DNA from: Actinomycetota bacterium
GTDB taxonomy: Bacteria; Actinomycetota; Acidimicrobiia; Spongiisociales; UBA5794
Assembly: GCA_027728645.1 (NCBI GenBank)
Contig: JAQCAA010000001.1
Span: 1-46,827, forward strand
Length of the DNA: 46,827 bases
Reading direction: 5' to 3'
A model generated the notes under the pieces. That model did not search any database, was not told where the DNA came from, and worked only from the letters and a program-made list of their open reading frames with translations. The translations under genes were made by a program, and so were the position numbers. Shown here piece by piece: positions 10,153 to 46,797 of the stretch; position 1 is the stretch's first letter; every line of letters starts with the position of its first letter.

Positions 10153-10224
10153 GCCCCAGTAGCTCAGGGGATAGAGCACTGGCCTCCGGAGCCGGGAGCG
10201 CAGGTTCGAATCCTGCCTGGGGCA
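10153..10224 (+). tRNA. tRNA-Arg (anticodon CCG)
   Basis: Hand-folded cloverleaf. Acceptor GCCCCAG/CUGGGGC, D arm GCUC-AGGGGAUA-GAGC, anticodon arm CUGGC-CUCCGGA-GCCGG, T arm GCAGG-UUCGAAU-CCUGC, discriminator A. No CCA is encoded. Confidence 0.9.
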
Positions 10225-10304
10225 CTCGCGTGGTTCACCTGAATGGTCTCATTCCAGTCGGATGAAGACTCTTCGGAATGGTCCGGCACATACCGACGGC
10301 TGCG

Positions 10305-12887: not shown

Positions 12888-13011
12888 GTAGTTGTCTCCT
12901 AGAAGGTTGCCCGAGCGAGGCTAGTGGTCTGTCGCAGGAGTGGATGCCGTGTCTCGGAGCAGCGCGAGTCGACCCTCGCTGCGCCGAGTCGTACAATACG
13001 GTGAAGGAGTA

Positions 13012-13683
13012 ATGGCTATGGCTGAATCAAGCTTCGACCAACAGATTGAAACGCTCACGGGAGCTCTCGGCGACACAACCCGGCGGGGGATCTACGTGAT
13101 GATTCGCGAGTCCCACGGGCCTGTGACCGCAAGTCAAATCGCTGCCAACTTCCAGATTCACCCCAACGTTGCAAGGCACCATCTCGACAGGCTTGAGACA
13201 GACGGGTTCATCAGAGTCTCAGAACGCCAGAAAACCAAGGCAGCGGCAGGGAGACCTGCCAAGCATTACGAAGCAACTGACAAGACCGTTTCAATCCAGT
13301 ACTCAGCCCGCAAATATGACGCACTGGCTGAGCTACTCGTGGCCGTGATTGACAGGCTCGACACCGGTGCTGCGTCTGATATCGCGACCGAAGTGGGACA
13401 CGACTACGGCATACGCCTTGGAGCGGAAATTGGAGTCCCAGACGATGAGGGCTACGAGGTCGCAGCTATGGCAATCGCCACATCAATGATGGGTGAAGGC
13501 CTAGGAGCTTCGACTGTTGCATCTGAAAATCGGATTGTTGCTCGATTCTGCCCTTTGGGGGGCTCCAACGACGATGGTCCAGGTGTTCTGCGAAGTCTCG
13601 ATCGAGGAATCGTTCGAGGTCTCCTAGAGAGCGCTGCCGCACGCCCGGTTGAAGTTCGAGTCGATCACCCGAGCGCAACCTGA
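13012..13683 (+). CDS. Winged-helix (ArsR/SufR-like) transcriptional regulator
   Basis: GAAGGAG ribosome-binding site 2 nt upstream of ATG 13012. wHTH segment LGDTTRRGIYVMIRESHGPVTASQIAANFQIHPNVARHHLDRLETDGFI...AGRPAKHYEAT. Its stop overlaps the start of the next gene (TGATG). Confidence 0.75.
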   Translation: MAMAESSFDQQIETLTGALGDTTRRGIYVMIRESHGPVTASQIAANFQIHPNVARHHLDRLETDGFIRVSERQKTKAAAGRPAKHYEATDKTVSIQYSARKYDALAELLVAVIDRLDTGAASDIATEVGHDYGIRLGAEIGVPDDEGYEVAAMAIATSMMGEGLGASTVASENRIVARFCPLGGSNDDGPGVLRSLDRGIVRGLLESAAARPVEVRVDHPSAT

Positions 13684-14234
13684 TGGCATGGATCGAGACT
13701 CCGAGAGAAGACACGTGGGACGGCGACCTTGCTGATCTCTATGCACAGCTCGTCGATCGCGACCATGACAGGGTCGACAACATCATGCAGATTCATGCCC
13801 TCAACCCCAGGGCAATGGCCGCGCATCATGCCCTTTACATATCTGCGATGGCGGGAACAAAGAACCTGCGAAAAGTCGACCGCGAGATGATCGCACTCGT
13901 GGTTAGCACGGTGAATGAGTGTCACTACTGAGTAGCCCACCATCGTCGCGGTCTGCGACGCCTTCTCAAAGATGACGAGCTGCTCGCAGCGGTCGAGTCA
14001 GACTGGAAGACTGCGCCAATCGACGGCCGAAGAAGAGCCATGCTTGCCTATGCGGTGAAGTTGACTGTGCTCCCACAGAATGTGGCGGCTGCCGATCTCG
14101 AGGATCTCAGAGCAGAAGGGTTCTCTGACAGAGACATCCTCGATATCTGTGAAGTGACGTCGTACTACGCGTATGCCAACCGAATCGCGGACGGGCTCGG
14201 CGTGCAACTCGAATCGTGGCTCCCCCCGGACTGA
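13683..14234 (+). CDS. AhpD/carboxymuconolactone-decarboxylase family peroxidase-related protein; candidate selenoprotein with UGA (13929..13931) read as Sec
   Basis: ORFs 13683..13931 and 14040..14234 are in one frame, with a single TGA and no other stop between them. The TGA replaces the second Cys of the family motif: NE-C-H-Y-[TGA]-V-A-H-H. A SECIS-like hairpin follows. Confidence 0.75.
13944..13960 (+). promoter_or_regulatory. Candidate bacterial SECIS hairpin
   Basis: CGUCGC-GGUCU-GCGACG is a perfect 6-bp stem with a GGUCU apical loop. It starts 12 nt after the UGA. Loop sequence and spacing resemble the E. coli fdhF SECIS. Confidence 0.6.
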
Positions 14235-14286: not shown

Positions 14287-14306
14287 GTCCTCCCTCGAGG
14301 GAGGAC
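14287..14306. terminator. Perfect 20-nt palindrome GTCCTCCCTCGAGGGAGGAC between convergent genes
   Basis: Read directly. No flanking U-tract on either strand, so it is not a canonical intrinsic terminator. Confidence 0.3.
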
Positions 14307-14400
14307 GGGCGAGCCTGCGAGCCAGGAGGGTGGCCGGGACACGCAAGACCGCAAACCACGAGCGTGCAATCCCCCTGAATCGTCGCTCCGCTCCTCTTCC

Positions 14401-14420
14401 GTCCCCCTTGAAAGGGGGAC
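14401..14420. terminator. GC-rich hairpin GTCCCCC-TTGAAA-GGGGGAC between convergent genes
   Basis: 7-bp G/C stem read directly. No clear U-tract. Confidence 0.3.
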
Positions 14421-14480
14421 CGATCTTCGAGCCGTTCTGGACGGTTCCTCGGTTATCGGGATTCCGTTCATCGCTTCCCC

Positions 14481-21795: not shown

Positions 21796-23097
21796 TCAGA
21801 AGGTGATTTCGCCGCGGAACACCAGGACACGTCGGAGCGAGCTCCCGACTTGTGGGTCGAATTCGTACGCTGATCCCTGATGGATGCGCTCAAGGGATTC
21901 AATCGGTGAGAGTGCCAATTCGGTTCGAGCCTGATCGTACGCGCTCGCCACCTTGATGATTTTGGACGCTATTGGGATGTCGGGATCAACCTCGATCCCA
22001 GGGGATCGATACGGTCGGTGCTGCTGTGCAACAAGCGTGCTGACGTTCTGGAGATAAGGAGCTTCGGCGATGATCTGGGCTCCCCACCGTGCGATGTCCT
22101 CATCGGTGAATCCCGCCTTTACGATGGCTGGTTCGTTGAGCGTGATTCTTCCGACATCGTGCATAAGGGCCGCATACTCAAGCTCGACAACCTCGTTCGG
22201 GTGCAAACCCATCTCTTGAGCGATCGCGACTGCAAGGTCTGCCGTTCTGGTCGAATGTCCTGCGGGTGCCAGCCCAGCAACTTCGGGAATTTGGGCCAAG
22301 GCGCGAATCGTTTGGCCGTACGTGACTTTCGTTGAGTGGTAGCGCTCAAAGGCAAGATGGCCAAAGGTGTACGGAAGAACTGCAACCGCAACGGCCCACA
22401 CGCCCATAACCGGCCAGGTGAGTCCGAGGAGCGTTCCTGCGGCAAAGATAGATATCACAACAGCCCAGTCTTCGAGGGCGAGGAGCCACAGATAGCGACC
22501 GGCGAGATCGCTTCGCTCAAGCCCGACGAAAGCGGCCACGAGAGCTCTGACGACAAACCAGACAAGACCCGCAGCGAGCACGGCAGCCACCACAGACCAT
22601 GTGAGATCTATCACATCAGCTTCCACGACACTGTCGTAGGTAGCGAGGTAGACGAACGAGTACGCCGCCATCCCGAGAGCGTCAGTGAGGAAGTCACCGT
22701 CGGTGCGTTTCATCGAAAGGAAGAAATTCCTCTCAATGAGACCAGTGGCAGCGAGAGCGAGACAAATCGCTGCCCCAAGCGCCATCTGATCATCCATCAA
22801 GATTGCTGCTGCGACCGCGGCAGCAATGCCAAGGCTGAGCCTCGAGCCTGAGGGTGCTGGCACCGTGATAAAGGAAATCGTCGTGATGACAACGGCCCAA
22901 AAAATGACTGGTAAGAACCAGTCAAGGCTCTCAAGGTTGGTTCGGCCAACGCCTGCGGCGGTGAACACGACGGCTCCCACCATTAATGCAAGCCATGCGA
23001 TGACGCTGAGCGTCTTGAGCCTCAGTTCAGCCATGCGACCCACCAGGCTCATCGGAGGTTCCAACATCGGACTGCTCCCGTCGACCGCGCTGCTCAT
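21796..23097 (-). CDS. Membrane-anchored HD-domain protein (degenerate HD-GYP-like)
   Basis: 433 aa. Multi-TM N-terminus. HD region AGHSTRTADLAVAIAQEMGL...YAALMHDVGRI. The GYP segment is degenerate (QQHRPYRSPG). The start is ambiguous; M22 at 23034 gives an 8-nt overlap with the upstream gene. Confidence 0.8.
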   Translation of the reverse strand: MSSAVDGSSPMLEPPMSLVGRMAELRLKTLSVIAWLALMVGAVVFTAAGVGRTNLESLDWFLPVIFWAVVITTISFITVPAPSGSRLSLGIAAAVAAAILMDDQMALGAAICLALAATGLIERNFFLSMKRTDGDFLTDALGMAAYSFVYLATYDSVVEADVIDLTWSVVAAVLAAGLVWFVVRALVAAFVGLERSDLAGRYLWLLALEDWAVVISIFAAGTLLGLTWPVMGVWAVAVAVLPYTFGHLAFERYHSTKVTYGQTIRALAQIPEVAGLAPAGHSTRTADLAVAIAQEMGLHPNEVVELEYAALMHDVGRITLNEPAIVKAGFTDEDIARWGAQIIAEAPYLQNVSTLVAQQHRPYRSPGIEVDPDIPIASKIIKVASAYDQARTELALSPIESLERIHQGSAYEFDPQVGSSLRRVLVFRGEITF

Positions 23098-37501: not shown

Positions 37502-38949
37502 GCTTCATCATCGGCACGACGCGACCATGGCTTGACGGAAGGCTCCGCCCCTTTCTGCAAAACGTTATCGGGCGATAAAGCGACCAAGCACCAAGCCGCA
37601 CGCCGCCCCGATGATTCCCAAGACACTGGGTATGACGGCGATCTGTGCGCCCATCTGAGGACTGGGTGCCCCCTCAATTTGGACCATCCATGTGGAGAAC
37701 GTTGTGAAGCCACCGAGCAGTCCAATCGTGAGAGGTCGAGTATCGACGGTGTCGACACCGGTCGGGTTACATAGACATTGACACCCCCCAGAGCGTTCAC
37801 GACATTCACGAAACCGTTCATGTTCACAAACGCGTAATAGTCGATGTCAATGCCAAGAATGAGTTCCACAACATCGCGAAGAGCCGCGAGCCCTGGCTCG
37901 CGTTCAGTGGGATACGTGTCAACCCACTCTCTTGTGAACGGATAGATCGCATTGATCTGGTCAGGGAAGCAATAGCAGGGAACGAACTGATCCGGTTCAC
38001 CGTCTTCGTCTTCGTCCGTCCACAGCCTTCGCTCTGCCCACGGGGTTAGCTGCTTCTCGAGATCCGTGAACGCGGTGGACCACTCACGAGGAAGCGGGGC
38101 ATGAGTCATGTTTCGTGGGATTCCGAAGACAGCCGACTTGGCAGTCGCAGGATCGAACGTGACCACATTGATGGAGTCAGTCCGTGATCCAGATCGGCCA
38201 GGGCCGCCGTCTCCTCCGGCAAGCAGAATCGTGATTCGCTCCATGCCCTCTTCCGGTTCGGTCGGTCCTGGGTCATCACCAGTTGCGGGGAGCAATCCGC
38301 CCAAGTCCAAAAATCGATCAAGGGACGCCCGTGGGCGATCACCCTGGGGCTGATACCGAGGCACCGAGAGCTTCGGATCAGGTACGGCAGGAAGAATCTC
38401 GTCGGCCGCGAACAAATCGTCGGCATCGAACTCAAAAGGACGCTGGCCCTGATCGCCTTCACCAAGAAAGATCTCATCGAGTGCGTATGCAGCATCGAGG
38501 GTCACCTGGGTCACGACGACGTGGGGCAGAGTCACGGCAAGGCACAACGCAGCGACAATCCCCGTCCTCCACCACGTGGTCTTGCGATCGACAAGCGAGA
38601 ATGCGTCTGTAATCGCCATTATTCGCCAGATGACGATGACCAGATTGATGATCAAGACCGACTTGAGGACCGTCGGCCGTATCGCGTAGCCAATCAGATC
38701 GCTCGTCGAAATGTCGAGAATGAAGTATCCGATCGCCCCGCCAACGAGCAGGGGCGCGAAGAACAGCACGGCGCGTTTCCACTCGCCCAAATATCCCTGA
38801 CCGAGGCCAGGAATGAGTGCCGACAAGAACGCGGCTATGAGACCGTTACCAGCCACGGCCACCTCTCTTTCCTTCCCTCTTTTCCACCACTCGCAGCCTA
38901 CGCACGAGTATGAATTGCGCACGCGTTGAATCGGCCGATGCCAAAACAA
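37459..38949 (-). CDS. LytR-CpsA-Psr (LCP) family protein, apparently 3'-truncated
   Basis: TM N-terminus and LCP core ITILLAGGDGGPGRSGSRTDSINVV...IDYYAFVNMNGFVNVVNALGGVNVYV. Homology ends near 37760. The last 100 or so codons read out of frame through the crcB fragment, and the conserved C-terminal LCP Arg-rich segment is missing. Confidence 0.7.
   Translation of the reverse strand: MFWHRPIQRVRNSYSCVGCEWWKRGKEREVAVAGNGLIAAFLSALIPGLGQGYLGEWKRAVLFFAPLLVGGAIGYFILDISTSDLIGYAIRPTVLKSVLIINLVIVIWRIMAITDAFSLVDRKTTWWRTGIVAALCLAVTLPHVVVTQVTLDAAYALDEIFLGEGDQGQRPFEFDADDLFAADEILPAVPDPKLSVPRYQPQGDRPRASLDRFLDLGGLLPATGDDPGPTEPEEGMERITILLAGGDGGPGRSGSRTDSINVVTFDPATAKSAVFGIPRNMTHAPLPREWSTAFTDLEKQLTPWAERRLWTDEDEDGEPDQFVPCYCFPDQINAIYPFTREWVDTYPTEREPGLAALRDVVELILGIDIDYYAFVNMNGFVNVVNALGGVNVYVTRPVSTPSILDLSRLDCSVASQRSPHGWSKLRGHPVLRWAHRSPSYPVSWESSGRRAAWCLVALSPDNVLQKGAEPSVKPWSRRADDEAWPQAQPPSTSEDS
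37565..37759 (-). pseudogene. crcB: C-terminal fragment of a CrcB/FluC fluoride channel gene
   Basis: My translation of a frame not in the ORF track gives GVDTVDTRPLTIGLLGGFTTFSTWMVQIEGAPSPQMGAQIAVIPSVLGIIGAACGLVLGRFIAR-stop (TAA 37565..37567). The GGFTTFST signature is present. The N-terminal half of CrcB is absent. Confidence 0.6.
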
Positions 38950-38999
38950 ACCTGAGCGATGAGGGTGAGCCCAATCAGGTGCGCGGTACCCTCACACTC

Positions 39000-40820
39000 A
39001 TGCCTCACCAATCTATTCGTAACGTCGCGCTCATCGCGCACGTAGACCACGGCAAGACGACTCTTGTCGATGGCATGCTTCGCGCCGCAGGCGTCTTCGC
39101 AGACCACGAGAAACTCGTGGACAGAGTCATGGATTCAGACGACCAGGAGAGGGAGCGAGGGATCACGATCCTCGCAAAAGCCGCATCGATCATGTGGAAC
39201 GGGACAAAAATCAATCTCGTGGACACCCCAGGGCATGCCGACTTTGGTGGTGAGGTCGAGCGTGCGCTAGCACTCGTCGACGGTGTGCTTCTCCTCGTGG
39301 ACGCGGCGGAGGGACCGATGCCCCAGACCCGTTTCGTCCTTTCGAAGGCTCTTGCCCTGTCGCTCCCTGTCGTCGTGGTGGTGAACAAGGTTGATCGACC
39401 AGACGCCAGAGCAGCAGCTGTTGTCGACGAGATCTACGAGCTCTTCTTCGATCTTGACGCCCACGACGGTCAGATCGAATTTCCGATCGTTTCAGCGATC
39501 GCCCGCGAGGGCATCGCTGTTGCAGGAATAGGCATTCCGTCCGAAGGCGACACCCTTGCACCGATTCTCGACGCAATCATCGAGTCAGTACCGGAGCCCA
39601 AGGGCGACTCTGCTGAGCCAGTGCAGGCAATCGTCACGAACCTGGACGCCAGTGACTACTTGGGCAGGCTTGCGATAGGCAGAGTGATCAGGGGAACGCT
39701 CAGGGCCGGAAGCCAGATTGCGCTTCTCCAAGGTGAGGGCTTGCCGGTTGTGAAACGCAAGCTCGGGCAGCTCATGGGATTCGCAGACCTTGGCCGCATC
39801 GAAGTCACAGAACGCTTCGCAGGGGACCTCTTTGTAGTGGCAGGGTTCCCTGAGGTTCAGATTGGAGACACCTTCTCCGATCCCGAAGTCACAGAGGCGT
39901 TGCCGAGACTCAAAGTAGACGAGCCTGTCCTCAAGATGACATTCGGTGTCAACACCTCCCCGCTCGCTGGGACGGAAGGCACCTTCGTTACGTCGAGACA
40001 GATCAAGGAGAGACTTGAGAAAGAGGTCCTCGGCAATGTCTCCATTCGTATCGGCGAAACAGCTTCCCCAGAGATCATCGAGGTCTCAGGCAGAGGCGAG
40101 CTCCAGCTTGCAGTCCTCATCGAGTCCATGCGACGGGAAGGCTACGAACTCCAAGTCTCTCGACCCGAGGTCATCATCAAGGTCATCGACGGAGTGGACC
40201 ACGAACCGATCGAAAAGGTCACTGTTGACGTGCCAGATCAATATGTGGGTGCCGTGACCCAGGCCATCGCTCCGCGAAAGGGAAGGGTGACCCAACTCCA
40301 GCCAGGAGACCACGGGCGCACCGTCATCACGTTCACCGCACCGTCTCGGGGACTGTTGGGTCTACGAACCAACCTCTTGACGATCACCCGAGGAACGGCC
40401 GTGGCCCATCAGCGCCACGACGGCTGGGTGCCATGGGTCGGGGACCTTCCGCACCGCAACGGTGGAGCAATGGTGTCGGACCGCCGTGGAACAGCAACTG
40501 GATTTGCACTCGATAATCTCCAGAAGCGTGGAGAGATGTTCGTCGAACCTACGACTGAGGTCTACGAGGGCATGGTGATCGGCGAGGCCGCACGTGCAGA
40601 GAACATGGTCGTCAACATCACCAAAGGCAAGCAACTCACGAACATACGCACACATTCAACGGACGAAGCCATCAAACTCACGCCGCCACGGGATATGAGC
40701 CTTGAGCCAGCAATCGAGTGGATCGCGGCAGACGAACTCGTGGAAGTGACCCCGAAGTCAATCCGTGTCCGCAAGAAGCTCTTGACGGAAGCAGCAAGAA
40801 AGCGGGAAAAGCAGAAGTAA
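39000..40820 (+). CDS. typA: Translational GTPase TypA/BipA
   Basis: G motifs AHVDHGKTT, DTPGHADFGGE and NKVDR. The start is taken at MPHQSIRNVALIAH (ATG 39000). Confidence 0.95.
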   Translation: MPHQSIRNVALIAHVDHGKTTLVDGMLRAAGVFADHEKLVDRVMDSDDQERERGITILAKAASIMWNGTKINLVDTPGHADFGGEVERALALVDGVLLLVDAAEGPMPQTRFVLSKALALSLPVVVVVNKVDRPDARAAAVVDEIYELFFDLDAHDGQIEFPIVSAIAREGIAVAGIGIPSEGDTLAPILDAIIESVPEPKGDSAEPVQAIVTNLDASDYLGRLAIGRVIRGTLRAGSQIALLQGEGLPVVKRKLGQLMGFADLGRIEVTERFAGDLFVVAGFPEVQIGDTFSDPEVTEALPRLKVDEPVLKMTFGVNTSPLAGTEGTFVTSRQIKERLEKEVLGNVSIRIGETASPEIIEVSGRGELQLAVLIESMRREGYELQVSRPEVIIKVIDGVDHEPIEKVTVDVPDQYVGAVTQAIAPRKGRVTQLQPGDHGRTVITFTAPSRGLLGLRTNLLTITRGTAVAHQRHDGWVPWVGDLPHRNGGAMVSDRRGTATGFALDNLQKRGEMFVEPTTEVYEGMVIGEAARAENMVVNITKGKQLTNIRTHSTDEAIKLTPPRDMSLEPAIEWIAADELVEVTPKSIRVRKKLLTEAARKREKQK

Positions 40821-40963: not shown

Positions 40964-41008
40964 ACGGTAGACGGTAGACGGTAGACGGTAGGCGGTAGGC
41001 GGTAGACG
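40964..41008. repeat. Tandem heptanucleotide array, (ACGGTAG)x6, the reverse complement of the 40844..40899 array
   Basis: ACGGTAG x4, GCGGTAG x2, then ACG. It ends 3 nt before the stop codon of the convergent M23 gene. Confidence 0.9.
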
Positions 41009-41011
41009 CCG

Positions 41012-42049
41012 TCACTTCACCAGCAGGGCAGCTCTGGTTCTGGGACCCACCAGCCCATCAACCCACAGGCTATTTGCTCGCTGGAACTCCAATACGGCGC
41101 GTAGCGTGATCGGGCCAAAGACTCCGTCTGCCCTGCCAGCATCGAATCCGAGGTCGTTGAGCCCTCGTTGCAGTTCTCTGACAGGGTCGCCGCGCGATCC
41201 GATGAGGAGGACCTCAGAATCCGCGCTGCCCCTGCTGAGACCGGAGAGTGCAGTCTTGGTTTCTCTTCCGACCAGACCGTCGACGGTCATCCCAACCGAC
41301 GACTGGAACCTTCGAACTGCCGCGTCGGTCTTGGAACCGAAGAATCCGTCAATACGACCGAGGTCGTAACCCAGGCCGTCGAGAAGGTTCTGAAGCACTC
41401 TGACATCGGCACCGTCCACACCGGACTTCAGCACCCTGGACCCGCCGACCAGTGGGTCTCTCGGTCCAGACCCAACGTCGTTCCCGCCTGCAACGACGAG
41501 TGAGCTGTATGCGTTCACCACGACTCCGTCTGGGTTTCGTAGTTCATAGTGAAGGTGTGGGGCCGTTCCCTCAGCGTTCCCGCTATCACCGACCCAAGCA
41601 ATGTGCTGCCCTGCAACGACGCGAACACCAGGGGTAATCGCTCGCTTGATTCCCCATCCTTTGCCGTCATCAGTTCCCGTGGTGTCGTTGTCGAGGTGGA
41701 TATACCACGACTCCCATCCATCGTCGTGCCGAATAACAAGTGTGCAACAGCGGCTCGGGTTCATGTGGGGTTCTGCAGTCCAATTCACGAGACGGACGAC
41801 ACCGTCAGCTGCCGCAACGACGGGAGTCATCTTGTCGGCCATGATGTCTTGGCCAACATGGAACCCATGGGATCGACCGGCCCAGAAGGTGTCAGAGAAG
41901 TGGTGCTCCCCATCCACAGGGAAGACGAGGTCATAGTCGACGTCTGCTCCCATGTCAGTTGCAAAAGCTACAGGTGCCACGAGCAACGAGCCCGCGACTG
42001 CCAACGAAACGAGGGTCGCCGCTAGGCGCGGATGCATGATGGTGGTCAT
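41012..42049 (-). CDS. Secreted M23 metallopeptidase with two C-terminal peptidoglycan-binding (PG_binding_1) repeats
   Basis: 345 aa. Signal peptide, HVGQDI (HxxxD), HLHYEL (HxH), and two copies of the ...DG.FG..T..AV..FQ... repeat. Confidence 0.9.
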   Translation of the reverse strand: MTTIMHPRLAATLVSLAVAGSLLVAPVAFATDMGADVDYDLVFPVDGEHHFSDTFWAGRSHGFHVGQDIMADKMTPVVAAADGVVRLVNWTAEPHMNPSRCCTLVIRHDDGWESWYIHLDNDTTGTDDGKGWGIKRAITPGVRVVAGQHIAWVGDSGNAEGTAPHLHYELRNPDGVVVNAYSSLVVAGGNDVGSGPRDPLVGGSRVLKSGVDGADVRVLQNLLDGLGYDLGRIDGFFGSKTDAAVRRFQSSVGMTVDGLVGRETKTALSGLSRGSADSEVLLIGSRGDPVRELQRGLNDLGFDAGRADGVFGPITLRAVLEFQRANSLWVDGLVGPRTRAALLVK

Positions 42050-45435: not shown

Positions 45436-46797
45436 TCCGCGTACCCAGGGTTGGCGGACCATGTTTGTAGGGGGTGTGTTGTCGCGGGACATCCCGTACA
45501 CATGTCGCGGGTCATCCCTGACAGTCTTGGGGTATGCGAAAAGAGATACCTATGAGCCTGAGGCTTGCTATTGCCCAGATGGATGTGACCAAGGTCAACG
45601 TGGCAGAGTTCTGTCGTGACCATTCGATTAGCCGTGACCGGTTCTACACGATCCGGCGCCGATTCGAGGCGGGTGGGGAGGCAGGTCTTGTCCCGTTTTC
45701 TCGGGCCCCCAACACGGTGGCGAACAGGACGTCGCTTGTGGTGGAGGATCTGATTGTCTTATTGCGTAAGCAGCTCGACGATGACGGGTTAGATGCTGGT
45801 GCTGAGACGGTCAAGTGGCATCTTGACGAGGCTGGTGTTGGTGCGCCAACGGCTTCGACGATTTGGCGCGTGTTGGTGAGGAGGGGGTTTGTTGTCCCTG
45901 AGCCCAAGAAGGCACCAAACAAGTCGTGGCACAGGTTTGTTGCTGACTATGTCAACGAGATGTGGCAGACCGATGCAACCAAGGTTGAGCTTGGTGACGG
46001 TACCGAAGTCGAGATCGTCAACATTGTCGATGACCACTCGCGGGTTTGTGTCAGATCACATGCTGTTGATGGGTCAACCACAGGTCCTGATGTGTGGGAC
46101 GCATTCGTCAAAGCCGTTGAAACATTTGGGATCCCGGCGTTGCTGTTGTCAGACAACGGTGCACCGTTCACCTCAAAGCTGTTCACGGAGAACCTCAAGG
46201 CTGTTGGAGTCAACACAACGAACTCTCGACCGTACCACCCCCAAACCTGCGGCAAGGTAGAACGGTTCCACCAAACACTCAAGAGATGGCTTGGAGCCAG
46301 AGACAAACCAGACACCGTTCAAGAACTCCAACAGCTCCTTGACGTGTTCACCAACATCTACAACACCAAACGGCCTCACCGCGGGATCGGGCGGCGGACC
46401 CCCATTGACGTGTTCACCACGGCACCAAAAACCGGGCCAGACGCATTCTCGATCCTCGATGACACCACCGTGCATCACAACACAGTCGACCGTGCTGGCA
46501 GAGTTGAGATCCCTGGCCCAGCAGCGATCACTGTCGGCGCTAAATACACACACAAGACAGCGACCACAATCCGTACCGGGAACAACGCTCACGTCTATAT
46601 CAACAATGAGCTCGTACGGAAACTAGTCATCGACCCAACGAGAAGATCACAGCCCCTCTACAACAAACCAGGAAGACCCACATGACAACCCCAACCACAC
46701 CCACCAACCTGTACGGGATGTCCCGCGACACCTGTACGGGATGTCCCGCGACACTACACACACTGTTTTGATGGTCCGCCAACCCTGGGTACGCGGA
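45436..46797 (+). mobile_element. IS481-family insertion sequence (about 1.36 kb)
   Basis: Perfect 27-bp terminal inverted repeats TCCGCGTACCCAGGGTTGGCGGACCAT (45436..45462 and 46771..46797). Subterminal 20-bp motif GTCGCGGGACATCCCGTACA at 45481..45500, with two inverted copies at 46710..46729 and 46733..46752. Single DDE transposase ORF. Confidence 0.85.
45534..46685 (+). CDS. IS481-family DDE (rve/integrase-core) transposase
   Basis: 383 aa. N-terminal HTH. Catalytic-core landmarks WQTDAT, LLSDNGAPF and PQTCGKVERFHQTLK. An alternative start is M7 at 45552. Confidence 0.9.
   Translation: MRKEIPMSLRLAIAQMDVTKVNVAEFCRDHSISRDRFYTIRRRFEAGGEAGLVPFSRAPNTVANRTSLVVEDLIVLLRKQLDDDGLDAGAETVKWHLDEAGVGAPTASTIWRVLVRRGFVVPEPKKAPNKSWHRFVADYVNEMWQTDATKVELGDGTEVEIVNIVDDHSRVCVRSHAVDGSTTGPDVWDAFVKAVETFGIPALLLSDNGAPFTSKLFTENLKAVGVNTTNSRPYHPQTCGKVERFHQTLKRWLGARDKPDTVQELQQLLDVFTNIYNTKRPHRGIGRRTPIDVFTTAPKTGPDAFSILDDTTVHHNTVDRAGRVEIPGPAAITVGAKYTHKTATTIRTGNNAHVYINNELVRKLVIDPTRRSQPLYNKPGRPT

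Follow-up and report, generated by a model that had tools for sequence, protein, structure and literature searches.

The window analysed here is a 46,827-nt stretch of the forward strand from an Actinomycetota bacterium of the class Acidimicrobiia (assembly GCA_027728645.1, contig JAQCAA010000001.1, positions 1 to 46,827). It carries an AhpD-like gene whose reading frame contains a single in-frame UGA at the second cysteine position of a CxxC redox motif, with a small hairpin shortly downstream. The gene is a candidate selenoprotein gene, in which the UGA would encode selenocysteine (Sec) and the hairpin would be a SECIS (selenocysteine insertion sequence) element. Four features make up the locus:

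13683..14234, + strand: AhpD-like (TIGR01926 peroxidase-related enzyme) candidate selenoprotein gene, 183 codons including one proposed Sec codon, plus terminal TGA.
13884..13943, + strand: predicted catalytic signature E68-x11-C80-x-x-U83-x3-H87 (AhpD-type E...CxxC...H), from the translation.
13929..13931, + strand: in-frame UGA, proposed Sec (U83), occupying the place of the second Cys in CxxC, from conservation, Cys homologs and repeat assemblies.
13944..13960, + strand: candidate SECIS hairpin, stem 13944-13949 / 13955-13960, loop GGUCU 13950-13954, codons R88-R93.

Read in one frame, positions 13683-14234 (+) give 183 codons, sense throughout except for one internal stop, and a terminal TGA at 14232-14234. 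Two open reading frames (ORFs), 13683..13931 and 14040..14234, are both in the mechanical ORF list. An earlier note on this DNA had described a single frame with a lone TGA and a full-length AhpD/CMD-type product; translation bore out the first claim and an end-to-end TIGR01926 match the second. For profile searches, Cys was placed at codon 83 of the joined protein. The TIGR01926 profile scored 142 bits (cut-off 81.8), with residues 2-175 aligned to profile positions 1-174 of 178. Pfam CMD was also matched, and the AhpD core domain TIGR00778 scored 40.6 bits (cut-off 27.8). On these matches, the joined 183-residue product is predicted to be a full-length TIGR01926 member with the AhpD/CMD fold. 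The PDB sequence match to 2pfx (E = 2.5e-31) covers residues 18-172 and crosses the TGA. Other solved matches are 3c1l, 2oyo, 6k40 (deposited as AhpD) and 2prr; the closest solved relatives are structural-genomics entries labelled "uncharacterized".

The local peptide at the UGA is N-E-C80-H-Y-[UGA]-V-A-H86-H87, and alignment A1 shows no variation at E68, C80, H86 or H87. Cys stands at the UGA position in protein homologs P0003, P0009-11, P0025, P0043 and P0065, as it does in two solved structures, 2pfx and 3c1l; the codon there is TGC (Cys) in homologs L081 and L082. Alignment with Cys-containing homologs and with the two structures thus upheld the proposal that the UGA occupies the place of the second redox Cys. 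The identical gene (552/552 nt, including the TGA and the hairpin) was found in four independent metagenome assemblies, and a sequencing error is excluded. Median ratios of nonsynonymous to synonymous substitution (dN/dS) were 0.15 in the N-terminal half and 0.13 in the C-terminal half, consistent with purifying selection on both sides of the UGA. TGA terminates 20 of the 31 long ORFs in the window. Since TGA is the usual stop here, any recoding is local and is not a genome-wide code reassignment. Scanning the window for further TGA-interrupted genes returned noise only; one candidate at 22217 was rejected because it is antisense to a real 433-residue gene.

Relatives were collected by a scan of one genome per species, which found at least 585 encoding loci. 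The best 80, at 60-72% identity, were analysed. They are labelled mostly as Acidimicrobiia, Acidimicrobiales, Microthrix, Aldehydirespirator and Poriferisodalis metagenome-assembled genomes (MAGs). Closed MAG chromosomes with the gene include OZ241894.1, NZ_OZ241975.1, OZ220727.1, OZ241903.1 and OZ240616.1. TGA lies at the same codon in 80/80 loci (C-x-Y-TGA-x-x-H-H), with TAA, TAG or a sense codon in 0/80. The ranking was not biased toward TGA, because the query carried Cys at that site. The Sec form thus appears universal among the Acidimicrobiia sampled (80/80 species representatives). The earlier remark that selenoproteins are sparsely documented in actinobacteria understates the case for this gene, the Sec form being present in all 80 best species genomes, mostly Acidimicrobiia; the same count makes the finding less unusual.

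A protein database search returned 583 relatives. At least 90 of the top 120 matches are C-terminal pieces of about 100 residues that start right after the TGA with M-[TV]-H-H-R-R-G-L, and several of these fragments carry the database name "peroxidase-related enzyme". Three entries (P0002, P0005 and P0017) are full-length with W at the site, because their TGA was translated with code 4. Public annotation of the AhpD-like family is systematically wrong, the gene being routinely split in two.

The window hairpin, CGUCGC-GGUCU-GCGACG, was found exactly where it had been reported. It has a perfect 6-bp stem, begins 12 nt past the UGA and places the loop 18 nt from it. Four of the six stem pairs are forced, because the peptide R-R-G-L-R-R uses CGN Arg codons. 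When synonymous codons were sampled with window usage, a 6-bp hairpin arose in 4.3% of draws, and one that also had the GGTCT loop in 0.8%. The window hairpin alone is therefore not beyond chance, and the case rests on comparison across species.

That comparison was made on 81 sequences, the window gene plus the 80 best species-representative loci. A hairpin is found at the identical offset in 81/81, with 97.6% of cells paired. The consensus is CGGCGC-GGTCT-GCGCCG, with no conserved lower stem. Only pairs 30-42 and 33-39 (alignment columns) are free to vary silently, because both join two wobble positions. Pair 30-42 is G-C in 61 sequences, G-U in 9, C-G in 3, A-U in 2 and U-A in 1, with one mismatch; the sole U-A is the window gene, against the G-C consensus. 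Pair 33-39 is C-G in 74, U-G in 2 and U-A in 1. The observed covariation was reached by 0/500 shuffles, and both wobble-wobble pairs show compensatory variation.

Codon choice inside the hairpin is narrow as well. The hairpin Gly codon is GGT in 80/81 sequences. Among 42 ungapped genes, Gly90 is GGT in 41, against 15-26% at five other conserved Gly positions. Codon entropies compare as follows:

Gly90: 0.16 bits in the hairpin, 1.44-1.85 bits at other conserved Gly.
Leu91: 0.16 bits in the hairpin, 0.86-2.07 bits at other conserved Leu.
Arg88, Arg89 and Arg92: 0.62, 0.37 and 0.77 bits in the hairpin, 1.29-2.01 bits at other conserved Arg.

Synonymous sites in the hairpin are thus nearly frozen. 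A distant AT-rich homolog (P0017; locus L091; 47% identity) has TGA, then 12 nt, then GGAAAA-GGUC-UUUUCC. Its peptide is H-H-G-K-G-L-F-L in place of H-H-R-R-G-L-R-R; every stem position is replaced, and the offset and the loop are kept. A strict motif requiring both TGA-N18-GGTCT and a stem of 5 bp or longer occurred at only two other sites in about 1.3 Mb of sequence (both strands), both outside any open frame.

Several variant loci were seen among the relatives. At L083:3001-3549 (GCA_024275815.1, JAJRYI010000263.1; 67% identity), TTA (Leu) replaces TGA at the Sec codon. This locus retains the window's exact hairpin, CGTCGC-GGTCT-GCGACG, and the same synteny (WhiB, DUF3107, Mrp, HTH_20); the TTA either marks a recently inactivated copy or is a G-to-T error, the contig being of low coverage. 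The two TGC homologs, L081:3001-3552 and L082:3001-3582 (sample ERZ25039492), lie beside ApbE and sulfate-transporter genes. Their hairpins are CGGCGC-GGTCT-GCGTCG in L081 and CGGCGG-GGTCT-GCGCCG, with the closing pair broken, in L082. Both give the impression of a recent conversion from Sec to Cys, the SECIS being left as a fossil. One Acidimicrobiales contig, CBDEFI010000006.1, has two TGA-containing copies with the hairpin (L055 and L062), the matches being about 12.3 kb apart. The Acidimicrobiia-type gene also occurs on contigs labelled Planctomycetaceae (L002, PBOU01000167.1) and Gammaproteobacteria (L036, CAXMSE010000057.1). L002 is identical to L003, labelled Acidimicrobiaceae, over the 87-nt compared region, from 12 nt before to 72 nt after the TGA. 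The L002 and L036 contigs are probably mis-binned in their MAGs. At L020:1860-1951, ARAGORN called a 92-nt "tRNA-Arg (gcg)" about 25 nt past the Sec TGA (1835), overlapping the SECIS region within the coding sequence; the call is almost certainly a false positive from the GC-rich hairpin.

Bacterial Sec insertion through SelB and a SECIS element is summarised in PMC9312934. By this route, the hairpin at 13944-13960 would act as a bacterial SECIS element. With the ribosome at the UGA, it would recruit SelB-GTP-Sec-tRNA(Sec), so that Sec would be inserted and termination avoided. Sec83 would replace the second Cys in the C-x-x-C redox pair, C80 being the first. The attack in M. tuberculosis AhpD is made by the second Cys of CxxC. 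By analogy with that enzyme, the Sec83 selenolate is the probable attacking nucleophile, and C80 would be the resolving thiol of a selenenyl-sulfide. The physiological substrate may be a peroxiredoxin partner or a hydroperoxide. Taken together, the sequence comparisons make it highly probable that codon 83 is decoded as Sec in one 183-residue AhpD-like thiol/selenol oxidoreductase.

A number of results count against Sec insertion. ARAGORN, run on the 46.8-kb window and on 83 related loci, detected no tRNA-Sec. A tblastn search with the E. coli proteins (NC_000913.3) detected no selA, selB or selD, either in the window or across some 1.3 Mb flanking the related loci. Folding of 13920-13990 (71 nt) was no better than that of shuffles (z = -0.89). 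The stem is short (6 bp) and has no bulged U, both in the window and in the consensus, and the bulged U in the upper stem is needed by E. coli SelB. The near-intact hairpin in the two Cys forms means that a hairpin alone is no proof of current SECIS function. In the literature found, no biochemical selenium incorporation is described for any AhpD-like family member.

The only SelB-like match, at 38910-40820, was rejected, since it covers the GTPase domain only and the gene is TypA (NCBIfam, 846 bits). Rfam at the gathering threshold found only tRNA-Arg in the window, Rfam being without a bacterial SECIS model. All 84 complete Actinomarinales genomes have selA, selC and selD, plus a divergent selB below threshold (bioRxiv 10.64898/2026.04.03.716425). 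Actinomarinales belong to the same class as the window organism and to a different order. In the literature found, Sec use in Acidimicrobiia is reported only recently and for Actinomarinales alone, and nothing was found on Sec in Microthrix, Ilumatobacter or Poriferisodalis. Judging by the conservation pattern, the source genome of the window presumably encodes selABCD.

Selenium-free read-through of the UGA would fit the lack of Sec machinery in the window and the related flanks. Near-cognate decoding (as Trp, Cys or Arg) or some other local recoding would then be promoted by the hairpin and yield a full-length product free of Sec, and the W in the code 4 translations of P0002, P0005 and P0017 would suit such decoding. 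This reading is improbable, because the UGA lies exactly at the catalytic Cys position, with Cys in homologs, which is the signature of Sec/Cys exchange, and because Trp or Arg at codon 83 would destroy the redox pair. The loop and the spacing of the hairpin match the fdhF SECIS, PMC13188914 catalogues the family among selenoproteins, and of the true stops in the window TGA is the most frequent.

A split gene, in which an 82-residue N-terminal and an approximately 100-residue C-terminal polypeptide are made separately and then associate, would account for the C-terminal pieces listed as proteins in at least 90 of the top 120 matches. GTG directly follows the TGA in 21/81 sequences, which would allow such a start. 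However, the codon after the TGA in the window is GTA, and the next in-frame start, at 14040, loses H86, H87 and 36 domain residues. A usable start directly after the TGA is present in 22/81 sequences only and absent in 59/81. A ribosome-binding site there would break the conserved C-H-Y codons, and in the solved homologs one chain runs across the junction. Separate synthesis of two halves is very unlikely.

A pseudogene, nonsense mutation or assembly error, which a lone internal stop can resemble and the TTA of L083 might recall, can be set aside as extremely unlikely given TGA in 80/80 species loci and four independent assemblies, a dN/dS of 0.13 in the downstream half and the lack of further stops or frameshifts.

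Decoding of codon 83 as Sec is therefore preferred over these readings. Around the gene, the nearest features are:

13018..13683, + strand: HTH_20 / ArsR-type winged-helix regulator, 221 aa, Pfam HTH_20 34.6 bits.
12969..12997, + strand: promoter-like site upstream of the regulator, consensus match only, 9/12 hexamer.
14287..14306, no strand assigned: inverted repeat I2, GTCCTCCCTC/GAGGGAGGAC, a perfect 10+10 GC-rich palindrome, 100% complementary.

The regulator was called as 221 aa in independent assemblies; its SufR (27 bits) and SdpR matches are weak and below the cut-off. Its stop TGA (13681-13683) overlaps the ATG of the AhpD-like gene (13683-13685) by 1 nt, so that the TGATG overlap noted earlier for these two genes was found at 13681-13685. 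The overlap suggests translational coupling in the window, and the two genes may be co-transcribed. The promoter-like site is weak evidence, one being found where 0.5 was expected in shuffles. Only seven related loci have the regulator no more than about 3.2 kb from the gene: it is directly adjacent in L008, L016 and L083 and lies within that distance in L004, L006, L059 and L080. It is not near the gene in the other approximately 70 related loci, where the gene sits elsewhere. The order WhiB - DUF3107 - Mrp - regulator - AhpD-like - aconitase is present, whole or in part, in L004, L006, L008, L016, L039, L059, L080 and L083. Pairing with the regulator is a feature of the window's subclade, not of the family. 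When neighbouring ORFs were clustered for a conserved partner, the sole outcome was a short-chain dehydrogenase located upstream in 36 loci, a noisy result in GC-rich sequence with many antisense ORFs.

The regulator gene is divergent from a gene for an Mrp/ApbC Fe-S carrier and lies near aconitase; together with the weak SufR similarity, this arrangement may point to a connection with the control of Fe-S or oxidative stress. A second GC-rich inverted repeat, TCCGTCCCCCTT/AAGGGGGACCGA, lies at 14398-14423. Both repeats fall in the 264-nt gap between the convergent AhpD-like and aconitase genes and are without a U tract. A terminator scan found no canonical site; the repeats at 14287-14306 and 14398-14423 may be bidirectional terminator hairpins.

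Upstream in the window are tRNA-Arg (10153-10225), a WhiB-family gene, a DUF3107 gene and the Mrp/ApbC Fe-S carrier. Downstream are the convergent aconitase, a ResA-like oxidoreductase, enoyl-CoA hydratase, gamma-glutamyltransferase, RlmN, thiol peroxidase and TypA. An IS481-family transposase (45534-46685; 226 bits, cut-off 224) is at the right end. At least five copies of the 7-nt direct repeats CTACCGC/CTACCGT lie at about 40970-41014 (-), just downstream of a peptidoglycan-hydrolase-like gene (41012-42049). Overall, the window is a stretch of ordinary actinobacterial chromosome. The relatives of the gene, together with WhiB and its synteny, indicate an Acidimicrobiia-type actinobacterium as the probable host.

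Annotation of the gene should show a single selenoprotein of 183 residues, carrying a translation exception at 13929-13931, instead of two short ORFs; the gene flags its host as a probable Sec user. The SECIS pattern (TGA-N12-CGGCGC-GGUCU-GCGCCG) is specific within the approximately 1.3 Mb scanned, and it is suggested that it could serve as a metagenome marker for the gene. Essential fixation of the Sec form across the class Acidimicrobiia (Microthrix, Aldehydirespirator, sponge-associated Poriferisodalis and marine "Acidimicrobiaceae") is a tentative and rather doubtful extension. If true, it would mean class-wide Sec machinery in an abundant, largely aerobic actinobacterial lineage, and a SECIS that has locked the protein into the R-R-G-L-R-R peptide.

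Known systems were compared with the window gene. In the fdhF SECIS of E. coli, an A-U pair closes the GGUC loop, the upper stem has a bulged U, and the lower stem is long and starts at the UGA. In both fdhF (MG1655, NC_000913.3) and the window gene, GGUCUGC begins 18 nt past the UGA, and the Gly-Leu codons GGU CUG stand at +7 and +8. In contrast to fdhF, the window hairpin is free of bulges, its 6-bp stem being perfect and its loop 5 nt long, and it lacks a conserved lower stem. The likeness to fdhF proposed earlier thus stands for the GGUCU(GC) loop and the 18-nt distance; the bulged U of fdhF has no counterpart in the window. The AT-rich homolog L091 has the A-GGUC-U form, as in fdhF. M. 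tuberculosis AhpD and the solved AhpD/CMD proteins share the AhpD core and E-x11-C-x-x-C-x3-H with the product; those proteins use Cys, and no AhpC gene is adjacent in the window. NF041238 ("hypothetical protein 1" of the Sargasso study) is also a CxxU selenoprotein with an AhpD-related domain; membership in this family (AhpD_rel_CFYUT) was rejected at 44.8 bits against a cut-off of 175, only the C-terminal part of the 357-position profile being matched.

The closest known system is the AhpD-like CxxU family itself. Among the new selenoprotein families predicted from Sargasso Sea data was the AhpD-like protein (COG2128, CxxU), for which PMC1088965 gives 27 sequences and includes a figure of the SECIS. 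In the Global Ocean Sampling (GOS) data it was the fourth most abundant selenoprotein family, with 299 genes (PMC2398784). A 2026 review places it under TIGR01926 and gives its motif as CxxU (PMC13188914). These three sources agree with the earlier statement that a selenoprotein family of AhpD-like proteins has been reported. The spread through Acidimicrobiia (80/80 best species genomes) is not stated in the literature found on this family. Family, motif and signal type were described in 2005-2008, and no new question is opened. The window gene is a further member of a selenoprotein family catalogued since 2005. It shares the same hidden Markov model (HMM) family, the CxxU motif with the proposed Sec at the second Cys and, directly downstream, a SECIS-like hairpin whose small apical loop contains G. 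Nothing essential differs; the window copy overlaps a helix-turn-helix (HTH) regulator gene.

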